Below, in pieces: positions 1 to 5,365 of a DNA stretch of 5,365 nt. The stretch is from a virus. Its lineage: Duplodnaviria > Heunggongvirae > Uroviricota > Caudoviricetes. Each line of letters begins with the position of its first letter. Position 1 is the stretch's first letter. The notes under the pieces were generated by a model. The model was not told where the DNA came from, did no database searches, and saw only the letters and a list, made by a program, of their open reading frames with translations. The stretch spans positions 1 through 5,365 of IMG/VR virus record IMGVR_UViG_2778261058_000002, one strand, 5' to 3'. The translations under genes were made by a program, and so were the position numbers.

Positions 1-332
1 ACGTCTGCGCCATGTTTTGACGCATTCATGGGGGCTGCGGTGGCATAAATGGTGATCCGGCGGGGAGGACCGCCACTTGCCACCTGGCAGACGGTAAAGC
101 TGCCTTTATTTACCAGTTTTCCGTTGAATCCCAGTCCCAGCGTTAATACTGCGCCTTTTGGTGGCAGCGCCATCGTCTCACTGAACAGGGTTATCATCAG
201 TTCATCGGAGCGCTTTGTGGCAGCACCATTATCGGTATAACGCAGTTCAGCCAGCCCCCGCTTTATGGCCTTCGTGATATCCTCACCCTCTGCTGTCAGG
301 CTGAAATCCGGCTGATACTCATTCAGTCCCAT
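1..332 (-). CDS. D: Tail protein D (gpD / late control D family, baseplate hub-like), partial: N-terminal ~110 aa only, gene continues past the window start
   Basis: Minus-strand frame is open from ATG at 332..330 to the window edge (checked codon by codon, no stop). In-frame TGA at 362..360 makes 332 the first possible ATG. AAGGAG Shine-Dalgarno-like motif about 11 nt upstream. Translation begins MGLNEYQPDFSLTAEGEDITKAIKRGLAELRYTDNGAATKRSDELMITLFSETMALPPKGAVLTLGLGFNGKLVNKGSFTV..., which fits the gpD-family N-terminal pattern as I recall it. Absent from the ORF track because it is truncated by the window edge. Start overlaps the stop of X by 10 nt. Confidence 0.75.
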   Translation of the reverse strand, partial: MGLNEYQPDFSLTAEGEDITKAIKRGLAELRYTDNGAATKRSDELMITLFSETMALPPKGAVLTLGLGFNGKLVNKGSFTVCQVASGGPPRRITIYATAAPMNASKHGAD

Positions 333-541
333 AGCTGAAACGTCTCCTTTTCCTCCGGTTCATACACCCAGTCCGGCAACACGATTTCCACTCCCGCCGG
401 ATAGACCGGACCAATATCAGCCAGTCCGGGATTGGCTTCCAGTACCGCCGCCAGTGACTGGTTAAGTCCGGCGCTGCCATAGTGTCTCTGACAGATATCA
501 TCCAGCATATCGCCGTCAGTGGTCCGCCAGTTTTTCGCCAT
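323..541 (-). CDS. X: Tail protein X (gpX-like, small LysM-like tail protein), 72 aa
   Basis: ORF 541..323 with ATG start. Translation MAKNWRTTDGDMLDDICQRHYG...LEANPGLADIGPVYPAGVEIVLPDW closely parallels the P2 gpX pattern (GDTLDAICVRYYG...LAANPGLAELG...LPD) from memory. Size matches gpX (about 67-72 aa). Lies between U and D as in phiCTX/R-pyocin-type clusters. Confidence 0.85.
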   Translation of the reverse strand: MAKNWRTTDGDMLDDICQRHYGSAGLNQSLAAVLEANPGLADIGPVYPAGVEIVLPDWVYEPEEKETFQLWD

Positions 542-1004
542 AGTATTTCAGCTCCAGTGTGAACGTTTTGTTCTTCGGCGCACCGCCGGGAAGAAATGAC
601 GTGGTGTTATCTGAATAGGCAGTTGCCACGAAATACCCCATCACATCACCTGTGCTCGAGACCAGAAGATGCGGGGCCGGATTGTCATCCACCATCTGAA
701 CCAGTGTATCAAGAGCGTCCATTCCCACACCGTCACGAAATCCTGCATGCGCCATACCTTCAAGGGTTATTGTTCTGGCCCCCTTGCCGGTATACTGCAG
801 CAGGTCGTTTTTTCCGATAAGCTGTTGTTCATCCCATCGCCATTCCATCGTGCGCTTCATGGCGTTATAAGCAGCAGTATCAATACTGAATTCAAACTCA
901 CCAAACGACAGCATGACGCGGGAGGCGACATCCGTTAATGATCCCACCGCGTCCCATGCTTCACGCTCAAGCCGGTTTACGCCCCAGCCCAGCAAATCCA
1001 CCAT
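516..1004 (-). CDS. U: Tail protein U (gpU-like), about 162 aa
   Basis: ORF in track is 516..1010, but the codon at 1010..1008 is GTG; the first ATG is at 1004..1002, preceded by a GGGGGTG Shine-Dalgarno-like run (1014..1008), so 1004 is the preferred start. Size and position (directly after tape measure) match P2 gpU. Its 3' end overlaps the X start by 26 nt. Confidence 0.8.
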   Translation of the reverse strand: MVDLLGWGVNRLEREAWDAVGSLTDVASRVMLSFGEFEFSIDTAAYNAMKRTMEWRWDEQQLIGKNDLLQYTGKGARTITLEGMAHAGFRDGVGMDALDTLVQMVDDNPAPHLLVSSTGDVMGYFVATAYSDNTTSFLPGGAPKNKTFTLELKYYGEKLADH

Positions 1005-1006
1005 AT

Positions 1007-2659
1007 TCACCCCCAGAATGCATCACCATCAGTCATGCGGGAACGCTGACCAAAATTAATATCTCCCAGATTTTTCGTTACCCTGTCTGCCAGTTGTCCG
1101 GCATCCTCGCCGGGCTTCTGAGTGATGTTAAATTCCGCCCGTATCTGATATGTGGGTTTTACTTCCACCTGGCTGACACTGCCGGGTGTATACTGAAGAG
1201 CTGAGAGGGGATCCGAATTACCCTGCCCCGGATCTGCTGCATGAAGTCCATCAATGTAGGTGCGGGATTTCTCTTTTATCGCCTTAAAATCAGGTTCTTC
1301 TTTCGGCCCCAGCAGAGGGTCGAGAAATGCATCAAACTTTTTATCGTCATGATTCCAGGGGAGATAACCGCGGGTGTCTTTATAAGCCTGTACAACCTGT
1401 TTCGTCAGATCCGGATTTTGCCTGAGCAGTTCATCAAACCATTCTCCCTGGCCGTTTTTCTGCGCCACCGCTCTCGCCAGCTCCGGCGACCCCATTTTTG
1501 CCAGATATTCCAGTACCTCTCGCCGGTCCTGACGCGGATCATCTGCCAGCCCCCACTCAATGGCTTTCTGCGTTATTCCGGCCAGAACTTTTCCAAATTT
1601 CCACATCCAGGCAGCCATGTCGATCAGCGCCGGCAGGGCATCATCACGAATAAATGCCCGGATTTTTTCCAGCCCACCATTCTTAAACCAGGCCGCAAGG
1701 TCATCCGTCACCTGTTGAATATGTGGGGCAAGTTCATTACCCAGCTGTCCGCTGATTTCATCAATGGAAGAACTCAGAACATTACGGAGATTTGACAGTG
1801 CCACATGTCCCTGAACTGCGCCATCAGCCCCTGCCTTTGTCACCAGGTTATAGCGTTTCTGCTCACTGATAAGCTCCCGATAAGTTTTCCCTGACAGACG
1901 CATCCAGGTCAGAATTTTATTGGCCTCACCACCGAACAACGCATCTGCCATTCCGGCAGCCACCTGTTCATTCTCTACCTGCAGTAAGCGATCAAATAAA
2001 AATTCGACCTGCTCCTGGTTACTTTTCCCTGCCATCACCCCGGCTTTCAGTCCCAGTTTGCCAAAGACCTCCTGAATGGCCCCTTTATCCGTGGCACCAT
2101 TATCATCGTCAAAAACCTTGTTCCGGTACTCCTCAAACAGATCACCGATGTTTTCACCGTTCAGCCCCATCAGTCGGGCCAGAGAATCCCATGACGCATA
2201 GGTTTCATAATCCACCCCATAACTGCGGGCTATCCCTGCCCGCTCTGCCGTCTCCGTATTCCGGTTAAGCACAGCGGCAGTGCCCGCTGCCAGCGTCAAC
2301 CCGGAACCAACCGAAAGCCCAAAACCGGTTTTAAGGACCGTCCCCGCCCGCCCTTTCCAGCGTTCCAGGCGTTCCGCACGAGCCAGTTTACGGTTAAATT
2401 TGTCCTGCTCTCCGGTGGCATCATGAATTTTTTTACCCAGCTTTTCATACTGCTTTCGCAGATCGGTAATATCCTGTCCTGCCAGTACAGCAGCCTGAAT
2501 TTTTCGTTTCAGTACGTCCTGCTGGCGTGTCAGACGAGCCACTTCCTGTGTTGCCCCTGATAATCCGTGCTTCAACCCATCAACCGATTTTTTCCACGAC
2601 GGATCTATCGTGCCTCCGATCCGGATATTCGCTTTAAGGTTATCGCCCACCGTTGCCAT
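1007..2659 (-). CDS. T: Tail tape measure protein (gpT-like), 550 aa
   Basis: Longest ORF, ATG at 2659..2657 preceded by GAGAGGAAG Shine-Dalgarno, TGA stop at 1009..1007. Located directly after the E/E' frameshift chaperone with its start inside the E' frame, the conserved arrangement for tape measure genes. Composition is charged/Ala/Gly-rich with predicted helical stretches, typical of tape measures. Confidence 0.85.
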   Translation of the reverse strand: MATVGDNLKANIRIGGTIDPSWKKSVDGLKHGLSGATQEVARLTRQQDVLKRKIQAAVLAGQDITDLRKQYEKLGKKIHDATGEQDKFNRKLARAERLERWKGRAGTVLKTGFGLSVGSGLTLAAGTAAVLNRNTETAERAGIARSYGVDYETYASWDSLARLMGLNGENIGDLFEEYRNKVFDDDNGATDKGAIQEVFGKLGLKAGVMAGKSNQEQVEFLFDRLLQVENEQVAAGMADALFGGEANKILTWMRLSGKTYRELISEQKRYNLVTKAGADGAVQGHVALSNLRNVLSSSIDEISGQLGNELAPHIQQVTDDLAAWFKNGGLEKIRAFIRDDALPALIDMAAWMWKFGKVLAGITQKAIEWGLADDPRQDRREVLEYLAKMGSPELARAVAQKNGQGEWFDELLRQNPDLTKQVVQAYKDTRGYLPWNHDDKKFDAFLDPLLGPKEEPDFKAIKEKSRTYIDGLHAADPGQGNSDPLSALQYTPGSVSQVEVKPTYQIRAEFNITQKPGEDAGQLADRVTKNLGDINFGQRSRMTDGDAFWG

Positions 2660-3079
2660 AACATCGCTTCCTCTCTTCCGACTCCGCCAGCATCATTGCC
2701 ACAAAATCCGTATACGGCAGCGCCATCACATCTCCGGGAGACCACCCGAACCAGGCACCGGCACGCCGTATCGCTGTCAGGATGCTTTCTTCTTCCGCCG
2801 GACCGGCGGCAGCAAAAAAACATTAAACTGACGCTCCAGGGCCAGGTAATCACACGCTTCCATGTTCATCATGTCTGCCGCGTCCATCCCACACAGACCG
2901 GCAATCATATCCAGATCAGCCTCTGCTTCCGGTTTGTTACTCCGGCGATGCAACAGACGATCGCGGACAGTGGGCGCACGCATAGTGACGTGCGTGATCG
3001 TCTGTCCTGATGCGGTGACATACGGCACGGATAACACAATTTCCACGCTGCTGGCAGGAACACTGTTTTTTTCCGACAT
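2640..3079 (-). CDS. Tail assembly chaperone E+E' fusion made by programmed -1 ribosomal frameshift (E frame 3079..2814, E' frame 2813..2640); about 146 aa
   Basis: Slippery heptamer T_TTT_TTG at 2819..2813 (minus strand) sits in the E frame as GTT TTT TTG. The -1 frame is open from the slip site to a TAA at 2642..2640 (translated by hand: AAAGPAEEESILTAIRRAGAWFGWSPGDVMALPYTDFVAMMLAESEERKRCYGNGGR) and overlaps the tape measure start at 2659, as for P2 E/E'. Confidence 0.7.
2777..3079 (-). CDS. E: Tail assembly chaperone E (gpE-like), about 100 aa, unshifted product
   Basis: ORF ends at TGA 2779..2777 with C-terminus ...ERQFNVFLLPPVRRKKKAS. Track start ATG 3085 sits directly against the AGGAG (3090..3086) with no spacer; the ATG at 3079..3077 has a 6-nt spacer and is the preferred start (MSEKNSVPASS...). 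Position between tube and tape measure and the internal slippery site identify it. Confidence 0.8.
   Translation of the reverse strand: MSEKNSVPASSVEIVLSVPYVTASGQTITHVTMRAPTVRDRLLHRRSNKPEAEADLDMIAGLCGMDAADMMNMEACDYLALERQFNVFLLPPVRRKKKAS
2813..2819 (-). promoter_or_regulatory. Programmed -1 ribosomal frameshift (recoding) site, slippery heptamer T_TTT_TTG
   Basis: Plus strand 2813..2820 reads caaaaaaa, i.e. TTTTTTTG on the minus strand, phased in the E frame as G-TT|TTT|TTG. This is the canonical X_XXY_YYZ slip motif reported for tail chaperone pairs (lambda G/GT, P2 E/E'). Confidence 0.75.
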
Positions 3080-3091
3080 AAGCATCTCCTT

Positions 3092-3119
3092 TAAAAAGAA
3101 AAGGCGGCCTGAGCCGCCT
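3092..3119 (-). terminator. Rho-independent terminator-like hairpin between tube and E (minus-strand transcript)
   Basis: Perfect 7-bp GC-rich inverted repeat AGGCGGC (3102..3108) / GCCGCCT (3113..3119) with 4-nt loop, followed on the minus strand by TTTTCTTTTTAAA (3101..3090). Lies in the 59-nt gap between the tube stop (3139) and the E Shine-Dalgarno. Confidence 0.7.
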
Positions 3120-3138: not shown

Positions 3139-3657
3139 TTAAACCCGGATGATTTTTTTCAGATCCGCCAGAACATTAACGCCGTTAATACGGCGCACAA
3201 ATTCCTCCGGAATAATGCAGATGGTTTCCACACCGTCAACAGCCTGACGGTAATAACTCAGTGACATTTCCACCGTCACCGAAGCCTCTGCCTGTGACGT
3301 TGCGGGACGCGCATCCGGCGTGATACTGGTGATCATCCCCTGCAGGGTTTCCACCTGTCCGCTGGTCGCATTCCCCACCTGGTAAGCCTGGCGGACAACA
3401 ATCTCCGGCGAATAAAGCCCGGCCTGTAATCCCAGCAGCGTAAGCATGGCAACATCATAACCATAAATCTTAAACGAACAGGTCAGCGCTTCCATGCCGT
3501 CATCCACTGCCACCGGTGCATCCATTGCGCCAGTTTTGATATCCACTGTCGTGATATTAATGGCTGGCGGCGTATATTCGTGCGCCCCCTGAAGACGGAT
3601 CCCACCAGGAAGAAATAACGCCCATGCGCGCAACAGTTTTTTTTCACCCGTAATCAT
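3139..3657 (-). CDS. FII: Tail tube protein (FII-like), 172 aa
   Basis: ORF 3657..3139, ATG start overlapping the sheath TGA (ATGA overlap). Same length as P2 FII (172 aa) and directly downstream of the sheath. C-terminal region ...ICIIPEEFVRRINGVNVLADLKKI resembles the tube-family C-terminus. Confidence 0.85.
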   Translation of the reverse strand: MITGEKKLLRAWALFLPGGIRLQGAHEYTPPAINITTVDIKTGAMDAPVAVDDGMEALTCSFKIYGYDVAMLTLLGLQAGLYSPEIVVRQAYQVGNATSGQVETLQGMITSITPDARPATSQAEASVTVEMSLSYYRQAVDGVETICIIPEEFVRRINGVNVLADLKKIIRV

Positions 3658-5129
3658 ACCGTCAGCTCCTCCAGCGCCAGTTTATTGTTAATCATCGCCC
3701 GCAGTGTCAGGCGCTCCAGTGGTGACTTCGGCCCAAAGTCATAATCGATATACAACTGCCCGGCGGCCAGGGTTTCTGCTGTGTTCAGTTCATCATTCAG
3801 CCAGGCACTGCCACCGTGGATCGCGCCCAGATTTTTAAGCTGACGCATATAGGCATTAATACTGCCAAGAATGTCGTCCGCCACATCACGATCCAGCGGA
3901 CGGTCAACATAAGGCAGCATGGCCTCCTGAATACTGTCCTCTATCACATCTGCAGTACGGCGTACCGGCTCAAAACGCCACTGACTGTGGGATGAACACA
4001 GACGGTTGCCCCAGTGTTTAAAACCGTCATGCCGAATAATGGTGGAGATGTTTTCCATGTTCAGCAGGTTTGCTGTGCAGTTCTGCTCCCCGAGAATAAA
4101 TGTGTCCACCTGCTCCAGACCGGTGATATTCATCACGTCCTGGTTTGATTTGGACCACCACCATCCCTTTTCGTAATCTATGCGGGCACGCAGCCCGGCA
4201 GCACGAGCCGAATACGGACGAAATACCGTTTGCCCGCTGTCATCCGTTACTGACACGCGCGGGCGCAGCAGCTCCACGCGCCCGCCAAAGGATGCGCGCC
4301 TCTGAACCACATCCTGCGGCGTTGCCATTGAGGGAGAGTCGATATAGGCCACGGCCCGCAGCTTCGCGGCATACGTTTCCAGCGCCTTTGCCACACCATC
4401 ATCCTCACTGTAACCCGTGGCAATGAGGATGCGCGGTTGATAGCCTGTCACGCCCTTACTTTCTGTCAGCGCCTCCATGGCCTGAATCACCGCCGCACGC
4501 TGTTCGGCCTCTTTCGCCTTTGTTTTGCTTTCCGCACGCACCACAATCACCAGCGCACCGGTCTGGTCAAAAATATCACGCAGGGCCGGATATAATGTCC
4601 CGGCTGAGCCCAGTTTCCCGGCCTGAGTAATGGCCCCTGCCACCACCACCGGTGTATTGACCGGGAACGCCTCATCCTCCCCGCCGGATAACGTCAGGCT
4701 GAACGGCGACACCACATTATTTTCAGCGCTTCCTGCATTCAGGGTACTGACAGCCGCCGTCACAGGCGAATCCCCCAGCGCATTCACCACTTCAGTCACA
4801 CGGTCCGCCGTGGCGTTAATCTGGCTGTGTTCGTCCGTCCCCAGCGTTATCGTCAGGGTTGTGCCTTTCAGCGATGCCGCTGTCTGCGCGTTTTGTTCTG
4901 TGGCAGCCACAGCAACAACCGAAATCTTATTACCGGCCCGACCTTCCTGTTTCGCCGTGAAATCCAGCGCCGTTCCCAGCAGCCAGGAGCCGGCTGTGCC
5001 GGAAGCGCACACACCACCAGAGGCGTCCGGCGCAGTCCCCACCAGGCCAATCACTGCCGTGGAGATGGTCTGCACGGCAACCGTGCCTGTCGTCAGTTCA
5101 ATGGTTTCAACACCATGTAATCCGGACAT
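3654..5129 (-). CDS. FI: Contractile tail sheath protein (FI-like), 491 aa, with an extra ~110-aa N-proximal insertion
   Basis: ORF 5129..3654, ATG preceded by GGGAG Shine-Dalgarno. Several blocks match the P2 FI sheath from memory: [32 protein letters not shown] vs [50 protein letters not shown] vs [34 protein letters not shown] vs [43 protein letters not shown] vs [27 protein letters not shown]. Confidence 0.9.
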   Translation of the reverse strand: [491 protein letters not shown]

Positions 5130-5141
5130 ACATTTCTCCCA

Positions 5142-5164
5142 TAAAAAAACCGCCCTCAGGCGGT
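5142..5164 (-). terminator. Rho-independent terminator-like hairpin between tail fiber assembly gene and sheath (minus-strand transcript)
   Basis: 6-bp GC stem ACCGCC (5149..5154) / GGCGGT (5159..5164) with 4-nt loop, followed on the minus strand by seven T (plus-strand A run 5143..5149). Only about 13 nt separate the T tract from the sheath ATG. Confidence 0.65.
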
Positions 5165-5183
5165 CAGATGATTAACTTCTTTT

Positions 5184-5365
5184 TCAGGTATTTTGTGGCT
5201 GCTCAGGCCAGCTAATATTGTTGTAAGTGGTCTTATCCGTAATAGCGCTGAAATCCATCGCCTGCAGCGATTTCGCGTAAATGCGGTACGCTTTCAGCTT
5301 CTCCCTGTCTTCGTCACTGATTAATCCCAGCAGCAGGTCTTTTTCCCATTCGCTGGTCATGATGC
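5184..5365 (-). CDS. tfa: Tail fiber assembly protein (Tfa / P2 gpG-like), partial: C-terminal ~60 aa only
   Basis: Minus-strand frame open from the window edge to TGA at 5186..5184. Translation ...MTSEWEKDLLLGLISDEDREKLKAYRIYAKSLQAMDFSAITDKTTYNNISWPEQPQNT* has the C-terminal W-P-E-x-P motif and preceding helical segment typical of enterobacterial tail fiber assembly proteins. Position just upstream of the sheath matches P2 order (H-G-FI). Confidence 0.7.
   Translation of the reverse strand, partial: IMTSEWEKDLLLGLISDEDREKLKAYRIYAKSLQAMDFSAITDKTTYNNISWPEQPQNT

Follow-up and report, generated by a model that had tools for sequence, protein, structure and literature searches.

The R2 pyocin of P. 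aeruginosa (PA0616–PA0628) has the same gene order as the tail locus described here, its U-like, X-like and D-like genes being the consecutive loci PA0626, PA0627 and PA0628, as the original prediction stated. Among solved structures, these three proteins are the best relatives of our U, X and D; the pyocin R2 entries contain 6, 6 and 3 chains of them, respectively. Different from our locus, R2 pyocin is without head, packaging, integrase and replication genes; PA0626 is 290 residues in size and has an extra N-terminal half, compared to the 162 residues of U. The sequence similarity between R2 pyocin and the window proteins is weak, with E-values of 1e-9 to 1e-16.

Like our locus, P2 and phiCTX encode homologous FI, FII, E/E′, T, U, X and D proteins and place a V-W-J-I-H-G block before FI. 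However, their X gene is located between L and the holin gene, U lies directly against D, and both head genes and regulation are of the P2 type. This place of X in P2 agrees with the original prediction, as does the F operon of P2, which reads FI-FII-E-E′-T-U-D. The U-X-D order that the prediction also ascribed to phiCTX was mistaken; phiCTX has the P2 layout, in which the X-like orf8 lies before the holin gene and the tail operon reads T-U-D.

Contiguous U-X-D genes are present in 64 phage records, including VHML, ECO1230-10, Chris1, yong2 and Wolbachia WO; among them, the full annotation was read for Chris1 and yong2. Both are lambdoid temperate phages with a contractile tail, and both share with our locus the sheath-tube-E-T-U-X-D order and the 26-nt U/X overlap, and with its E. 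coli relatives the lambda-type terminase, W, portal and protease. At the amino-acid level, the sheath is 64% identical to that of Hafnia phage yong2 and 61% to that of Citrobacter phage Chris1, and U-X-D are ∼53% identical. In Chris1 and yong2, W, J and I are located after D, as are the fibre genes, and only one V-like baseplate gene precedes the sheath gene, whereas V, W, J, I, H and Tfa all precede it in the E. coli prophage. Our literature search found no virion description of yong2 or Chris1.

In Milano, PVC and Afp, the U-like centrepiece protein carries a fused X-like LysM domain at its C-terminus (PMC10811340), which supports U-then-X as a general arrangement; the position of gene X is not discussed in PMC4684702. 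U-X-D is the common layout for P2-type tails, and P2 and phiCTX are the exceptions, with X moved beside the lysis genes. One element of the same kind as ours, for which the same tailocin question was raised, is ‘prophage 5’ (s2-ST131) of E. coli ST131. It was scored intact and contains 14 tail genes in the exact R2-pyocin order (PMC9205054), together with 10 head genes and lysis genes after the tail genes (Tantoso et al. 2022, PMC9205054); it was called a tailocin though it carries head genes (PMC9205054).

Gene content of the window

The window, i.e. the whole stretch of DNA analysed, is one complete draft contig of 5365 bp (NLNZ01000110.1) that ends inside Tfa and inside D; a look-up of its tape measure protein led back to this contig only. 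As the original prediction stated, an intact prophage tail module and a tailocin cannot be told apart from the window alone, the window being the entire contig. In the ORF scan, all coding in the window is on the minus strand, which carries the sheath, tube, chaperone E, tape measure T, U, X and the start of D; all ORFs inside the window are intact, with D partly present. The plus-strand ORFs within 1–1010 are antisense to well-supported genes.

The first minus-strand feature is the 3′ end of a tail fibre assembly gene (Tfa, 5184–5365; PF02413 Caudo_TAP, 9.2e-12), which is cut at the contig end. Positions 5247–5365 share 99–100% identity with phiP27 and with many unrelated prophages of E. coli. 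In a megablast search of the phage collection, the match was confined to the last ∼120–145 bases, the tip of Tfa, and no isolate of the lineage was found at the nucleotide level. Tfa is followed by the FI-like tail sheath gene (3654–5129, 491 residues; PF04984 and PF17482) and the FII-like tail tube gene (3139–3657, 172 residues; PF04985, 4.4e-24). Two terminator-like hairpins, both consensus matches only, are located on the minus strand in the gaps between Tfa and sheath (5148–5165, a 7-bp stem followed by TTTTTT) and between tube and E (3102–3119, a 7-bp stem with six G-C pairs followed by TTTCTTTTT).

Gene E (2777–3079, minus strand) encodes a tail assembly chaperone (PF10109 Phage_TAC_7, 2.2e-12). 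A candidate E′ extension (2640–2819) is probably reached from E by a −1 frameshift: the slippery site T TTT TTG is at 2819–2813, the open −1 frame is 57 codons in length with its stop at 2642–2640, and the candidate E′ shares an F-x-W-x-P...[DE][LV] motif with the E′ of P2. Small ORFs are annotated at the E′ place in yong2 and phiCTX; the extension alone gave no Pfam or PHROG match. Gene T (1007–2659, minus strand, 550 residues) is presumed to encode the tape measure from its position between E and U. Although the Pfam search placed T in no family, it matches PHROG 3654 over its full length (7.6e-216) and several tape-measure PHROGs weakly; its RefSeq names are ‘phage tail tape measure protein’ or ‘hypothetical protein’. 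The T stop codon (1007–1009) abuts or overlaps the start of U.

Gene U (minus strand, 162 residues) spans 516–1004 from an ATG, or 516–1010 from an alternative GTG start at 1010. It matches PF06995 Phage_P2_GpU (E 3.4e-27) and PHROG 76 (1.1e-45), and its best solved relative is ‘Ripcord PA0626’ of PDB 6u5b, in the C-terminal half only; by these matches, U is assigned as the tube-initiator or baseplate centrepiece protein. Gene X (323–541, minus strand) encodes 72 residues and matches PF05489 Phage_tail_X (E 6.6e-19, 67.7 bits, cut-off 22) and PHROG 46 ‘baseplate hub’ (2.2e-23). The best solved relatives of X, ‘Tail protein X’ (2ltf) and ‘Glue PA0627’ of pyocin R2 (6u5b), are of LysM fold, which bears out its description as LysM-like and identifies X, by homology, as a small LysM-fold baseplate ‘glue’ protein. 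Gene D (1–332, minus strand) is cut by the contig end after its first 110 codons, and 109 of these 110 residues are identical to the 366-residue D of E. coli A36. The complete A36 protein matches PHROG 52 (5.5e-95) and pyocin R2 PA0628 (PDB 6u5h_C, 3.6e-16), and its Pfam Phage_GPD score is sub-threshold (22.1 versus a cut-off of 30.1 bits); from these relatives, D is assigned as a gp27/PA0628-like baseplate hub. In the NCBIfam search, the tube gave a sub-threshold match, and U, X, T, D and the sheath gave none.

Read from the sequence, U and X overlap by 26 nt (516–541) and X and D by 10 nt (323–332), confirming the predicted placement of X between U and D with overlapping coding regions. In the proposed assembly, T would set the length of the tail, with E and E′ acting as chaperones; U would start the tube on the hub, X would be the ‘glue’ between hub and wedges, and D would form the trimeric hub that bears the spike V. 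By the pyocin R2 chain counts, each tail would contain about six copies each of U and X and three of D. The overlapping frames probably couple translation, and these low-copy parts would then be made together, a suggestion drawn from the sequence only.

The module in E. coli prophages

At least 80% of the window is present in 74 of 5426 complete E. coli genomes (∼1.4%) at 92–98% nucleotide identity, and this identity to E. coli chromosomes supports an E. coli origin of the window. The genomes have up to six matching places each, and 63 of them hold at least 80% of a 24-kb head-plus-tail region in one place. Among the relatives, gene order and overlaps are identical over the whole window; H, Tfa, the second fibre gene after D, the integrases and the insertion sites are variable. 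Many listed carriers of the prophage lineage are livestock, food, STEC or ETEC isolates. A nucleotide-level link to s2-ST131 was considered and rejected, as only the Tfa tip matches outside the 74 genomes.

The closest copy, in E. coli A36, is 98.1% identical over all 5365 bases. The A36 prophage spans ∼43 kb and a 23/24-nt repeat of the 3′ end of ssrA marks its two boundaries. It contains an integrase, cI/cro-type regulators, replication genes, the Q antiterminator, two tRNAs, and lysis genes for holins and an M15 endolysin. Its head genes are terS, terL, W, portal, S49 protease, decoration protein, major capsid protein and FI; they are followed by V-W-J-I-H-Tfa, the genes of the window and then a second fibre gene. 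The same late region, with head and lysis genes, is present in 52F4, E275a and SC407, and the late genes of the relatives read V-W-J-I-H-Tfa-sheath-tube-E/E′-T-U-X-D. In eight sampled genomes, five copies are integrated at ompW (52F4, SC407, C012, STEC316 and PSS-15), one at ssrA (A36), one beside the Rac prophage and one beside a tRNA-Ser gene near hya.

In IMG/VR, the same tape measure was found in 32 loci; U-X-D are present in all 30 loci that extend past T, and capsid, FI and head-tail genes in 15 of the 15 loci with far-enough flank. D is mosaic among these loci, being either 89–90% or 96–98% identical to that of A36. No copy without head genes was observed among the eight sampled genome contexts or the 15 capsid-reaching IMG/VR loci. 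The closest phage isolates are only 53–64% identical at the protein level.

Taken together, we consider the window, with a probability of roughly 0.92, to be the tail-core module in the distal late operon of a lambdoid temperate E. coli myovirus, with a lambda-type head and a P2-type contractile tail. The sheath, tube, E(E′), T, U and X of the tail set are present and intact in the window and D is partial; the lambda-type head, cI/cro, Q, lysis cassette, integrase and att are all found in the A36 prophage. Because the window is a lone contig ending inside Tfa and D, we infer its prophage context from the copies of 92–98% identity.

Alternative readings of the locus

The next most probable reading after the lambdoid myovirus is that the source strain contains a defective, cryptic copy, in which D or one of the head genes might be disrupted, and makes no functional phage; we regard it as unlikely. 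D is broken off at codon 110 by the contig end, and this D-side end of the window is covered by full-length copies and by no partial match, so the sequence may be rearranged there, by an IS insertion or otherwise. Decay is seen in the relatives: in E275a an IS66 element lies beside D, the portal gene of A36 is frameshifted, and 52F4 and PSS-15 contain IS21-family elements. However, a second related prophage of the same genome could explain the contig break equally well, as the genomes have up to six matching places and D is mosaic, and the genes inside the window are all intact.

It is far less probable that the module of the source strain (GCA_002229985.1) is a domesticated R-type tailocin, i.e. 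that the head genes were lost and the intact tail module is used by E. coli as a headless contractile bacteriocin that the host keeps to kill competitors. Such a reading would fit a lone contig whose flanks lie outside it and whose ORFs are all intact, and the order V...FI-FII-E-T-U-X-D of the relatives equals that of R2 pyocin PA0616–PA0628. The tailocin order V-W-J-I-H-chaperone-sheath-tube-E-T-U-X-D is indeed found from sheath to D in the window and in full in the relatives; it is non-discriminating because it is common to many phages, and U-X-D is shared by 64 records of virion-forming or complete phage genomes. Against the tailocin stand the lambda-type head and packaging genes, which are contiguous with the module in at least 63 of the 74 E. 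coli genomes (capsid, portal and terminase being annotated in the relatives A36, 52F4, E275a and SC407), and the capsid-side genes in 15 of 15 informative IMG/VR loci; in none of the sampled contexts were head genes absent. Different from a fixed locus devoid of integrase and att, the element occurs in ∼1.4% of genomes and at four or more chromosomal sites among the eight sampled copies, with an integrase and att repeats in A36.

The original prediction had suggested a possible tailocin, and had named two observations that would speak against it: flanks with a complete head and packaging module, integrase and att sites, or a U-X-D order that is routine in P2-family genomes. Both were made on the comparators. 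Near-identical modules lie in complete, mobile prophages that carry terminase, portal, protease and capsid genes as well as an integrase and att repeats, and the order is routine in P2-type-tail phages, outside the P2 family proper. On these comparators, the suggestion is not supported, and U-X-D is no sign of a tailocin.

Least probable of all is that the window phage belongs to the P2 family proper (Peduoviridae) with a moved X: its tail proteins fall in P2-named Pfam families (GpU, tail X, FII and sheath), but they are only ∼30–35% identical to those of Peduoviridae, X lies between U and D rather than beside the lysis genes (between L and the lysis genes, with U then D) as in P2 and phiCTX, and for the sampled relatives membership is refuted by lambda-type head and packaging genes (terS to FI instead of Q-P-O-N-M-L) and by lambdoid regulation (cI/cro and Q instead of Ogr).

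Significance of the gene order

We take the U-X-D module for ordinary tail genes of a prophage, and nothing points to a tailocin. Neither U-X-D nor an R2-pyocin-like tail gene order indicates a tailocin, and caution is needed where such orders are met; the ST131 prophage literature shows the same trap, with a tailocin label given despite head genes (PMC9205054). The prophage lineage, which has no close cultured isolate, combines a lambda-type head with a pyocin-ordered tail, and it might be mildly useful for obtaining tail parts specific to E. coli.

Gene content of the window

All credible genes of the window lie on the minus strand, and the plus-strand GC skew is negative throughout. From 5′ to 3′ on that strand, the window contains the 3′ end of the tail fibre assembly gene (Tfa; 5365–5184, PF02413), a 491-residue sheath (5129–3654, PF04984 and PF17482), the tube (3657–3139, PF04985), chaperone E (3079–2777, PF10109), a 550-residue protein T presumed from its position to be the tape measure (2659–1007), the 162-residue U (1004–516, PF06995, E = 3.4e-27), X (541–323, PF05489, E = 6.6e-19) and the first 110 codons of D (332–1). 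The stop codon of T abuts the start of U; the U/X overlap is 26 nt long and the X/D overlap 10 nt. The domain matches are far beyond chance, confirming the original prediction of a U-X-D order with overlapping frames.

T belongs to no Pfam family. Its full length aligns with PHROG 3654, labelled 'unknown function', and it has weak matches to several tape-measure PHROGs; its naming in RefSeq is inconsistent. Compared to the 815-residue tape measure of P2, T is short, and a tail shorter than that of P2 is expected. The D fragment is identical at 109 of 110 positions to the 366-residue D protein of Escherichia coli A36; the full-length A36 protein matches PHROG 52 (5.5e-95) and the R2 pyocin hub PA0628 (3.6e-16), with a Pfam GPD score under the cut-off.

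A slippery T TTT TTG at 2819..2813 (minus strand) opens a 57-codon −1 frame. This candidate E′ extension (2640–2819) fills the otherwise non-coding 117-nt gap between E and T, extends 20 nt beyond the T start and has an F-x-W-x-P motif in common with P2 E′. Together, these features suggest the usual E/E′ chaperone pair, produced by a candidate −1 programmed frameshift; the pair is regarded as putative because the extension has no match in Pfam or PHROG. In the RefSeq relatives, E alone is annotated, with no E′. Two strong terminator-like hairpins with T-runs are located on the minus strand, at 5148–5165 in the Tfa/sheath gap and at 3102–3119 in the tube/E gap; the scan gave nine terminator-like sites, versus 4.4 expected from shuffles. 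The hairpins may be operon boundaries, or may attenuate the genes 3′ of the tube gene; the Q-modified polymerase of a lambdoid phage would presumably read through both.

Gene order in phages and R2 pyocin

The U-X-D order had been proposed to resemble phiCTX and the R-type pyocins rather than P2. For P2 and R2 pyocin, the comparison holds: in the annotated P2 genome, X is located between L and the holin gene Y and the F operon reads FI-FII-E-E′-T-U-D, and PA0626, PA0627 and PA0628 are consecutive within the R2 cluster PA0615–PA0628. For phiCTX it fails, as the annotated genome has the P2 layout, with the X-like orf8 before the holin gene and orf25 (T), orf26 (U) and orf27 (D) adjacent. Among solved structures, U is closest to 'Ripcord PA0626', X to 'Glue PA0627' and D to PA0628; different from PA0626, U is P2-sized and lacks the N-terminal half. 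In Milano phage, PVC and Afp, the U-like centrepiece protein carries an X-like LysM domain as a C-terminal fusion (PMC10811340). Therefore, U followed by X is general in contractile injection machines, and the position of X in P2 and phiCTX is the exception.

Judged by the homologous pyocin R2 baseplate and by PMC10811340, the inner core of the tail would be made up of T, U, X and D. D is predicted to be a trimeric, T4 gp27-like hub bearing the spike V, with U extending the tube onto it; X would be a LysM-fold, T4 gp53-like 'glue' joining hub and wedges, and T would fill the tube and determine its length. The pyocin R2 structure entries contain six, six and three chains of the U-, X- and D-like proteins, respectively. 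Translational coupling, by way of the overlapping frames, is likely for these low-copy components.

A tblastn search of 50,697 phage records with concatenated U, X and the D N-terminus matched 511 records in any part. At least 80% of the query, a coverage that demands X between U and D, was found in one place in 64 of them, including Citrobacter phage Chris1, Hafnia phage yong2, Vibrio phages VHML, MAR and VP585, Escherichia phages ECO1230-10, ECOO78 and ep3, Enterobacter phage Arya, the Xanthomonas FoX phages, Pseudomonas PPpW-3, Wolbachia WO and AcaML1. Coverage was only ∼71% in Pseudomonas phages Dobby and BR319a and fell at two places in each record, a pattern that an X located elsewhere would give. 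The nearest cultured phages, yong2 and Chris1 (sheath 61–64% identical, U-X-D about 53%), are annotated T-U-X-D, their U and X likewise overlapping by 26 nt, and also possess integrase and lambda-type terminase, portal and protease genes. The U-X-D order is no tailocin signature.

Genomic context of near-identical copies

The window is the entire contig NLNZ01000110.1 (assembly GCA_002229985.1), so its flanks cannot be read; the evidence for a prophage comes from near-identical copies found elsewhere. Of 5426 complete E. coli genomes, 74 contain ≥80% of the window, with identities of 92–98%. The best copy, in A36, is 98.1% identical across all 5365 bases and sits within a ∼43-kb prophage that contains, in order, integrase, cI/cro-type regulators, replication genes, Q antiterminator, two tRNAs, holins, an M15 endolysin, terS, terL, W, portal, S49 protease, decoration protein, major capsid protein, FI, head-tail genes, V-W-J-I-H-Tfa, the window's genes, a second fibre gene and a DUF4376 gene. 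The prophage is bounded by copies of a 23/24-nt repeat of the ssrA 3′ end: one lies in ssrA, the other ∼130 bp outside the integrase gene. Annotations of strains 52F4, E275a and SC407 show this late region too, again together with head and lysis genes. In a separate search, counted independently of the 74, the 24-kb head-plus-tail region of A36 was found in one place at ≥80% in 63 genomes.

In IMG/VR, the same tape measure occurs at 32 loci (77–100% amino acid identity), many on contigs of 38–48 kb. U-X-D has the same spacing in all 30 loci reaching beyond T, and capsid, FI and head-tail genes are present in 15 of 15 loci with a long enough upstream flank. No copy without head genes was found among eight sampled genome contexts or the IMG/VR loci whose flank reaches the capsid gene. 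The eight genomes carry the element in an interrupted ompW (five), in ssrA (one), beside the Rac prophage (one) and beside tRNA-Ser near hya (one). P2 family membership was rejected, as the relatives examined lack P2-type head genes and X is positioned differently.

The copies have further features. A tRNA-Gly and tRNA-Thr pair lies upstream of the lysis genes in A36 (locus positions 42502–42655), E275a (42222–42375) and SC407 (42721–42874). A second fibre locus lies 3′ of D in A36 (16055–19206), 52F4, E275a, SC407, PSS-15 and three further sampled copies (L043, L044 and L046); it encodes a lambda Stf-type 'prophage tail fibre N-terminal' protein (PF08400, E = 2.6e-55) and a DUF4376 protein, is additional to the P2 H-like fibre and Tfa 5′ of the sheath gene, and is highly variable (41–98% identity). 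Decay is visible as a frameshifted portal gene in A36 (34587–36112), an IS66 element adjoining D in E275a (16672–19287) and IS21-family elements in 52F4 (41525–43827) and PSS-15 (4814–6615).

Prophage, defective copy or tailocin

Some uncertainty remains, because the flanks of the source contig cannot be read and the contig ends inside D without an obvious repeat. Within window positions 5220–5365, the Tfa C-terminus, the last ∼90–145 bases match phiP27, E. coli W, DH5alpha and some 130 further E. coli genomes at 88–100% identity, in the absence of the rest of the module. The Tfa tip is a mosaic junction, and this widely shared segment is the likely cause of the contig end there. The opposite end (window 1–10) falls within D at codon 110; full-length copies aside, no partial match covers it. 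This break could reflect an IS insertion, or the presence of a second related prophage in the source genome. Such an end is what a defective prophage copy in the source strain might leave, and we consider that reading unlikely. A domesticated tailocin, suggested by the original prediction, is highly improbable, since its defining features, absent head genes and a fixed locus, fail in every relative examined.

We therefore favour a prophage tail module, of a kind already described. The ST131 'prophage 5' (PMC9205054), scored intact, has its tail genes in exact R2-pyocin order, with the head and lysis genes after them; it is the same kind of element, but differs at the nucleotide level. At the ompW insertions, a 126-nt ompW remnant is annotated as a pseudogene in 52F4 (12832–12957), SC407 (14051–14176), L043 (7921–8046), L044 (4320–4445) and PSS-15 (4044–4169). 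With five of the eight sampled copies in ompW, such lysogens may be without an intact ompW gene.
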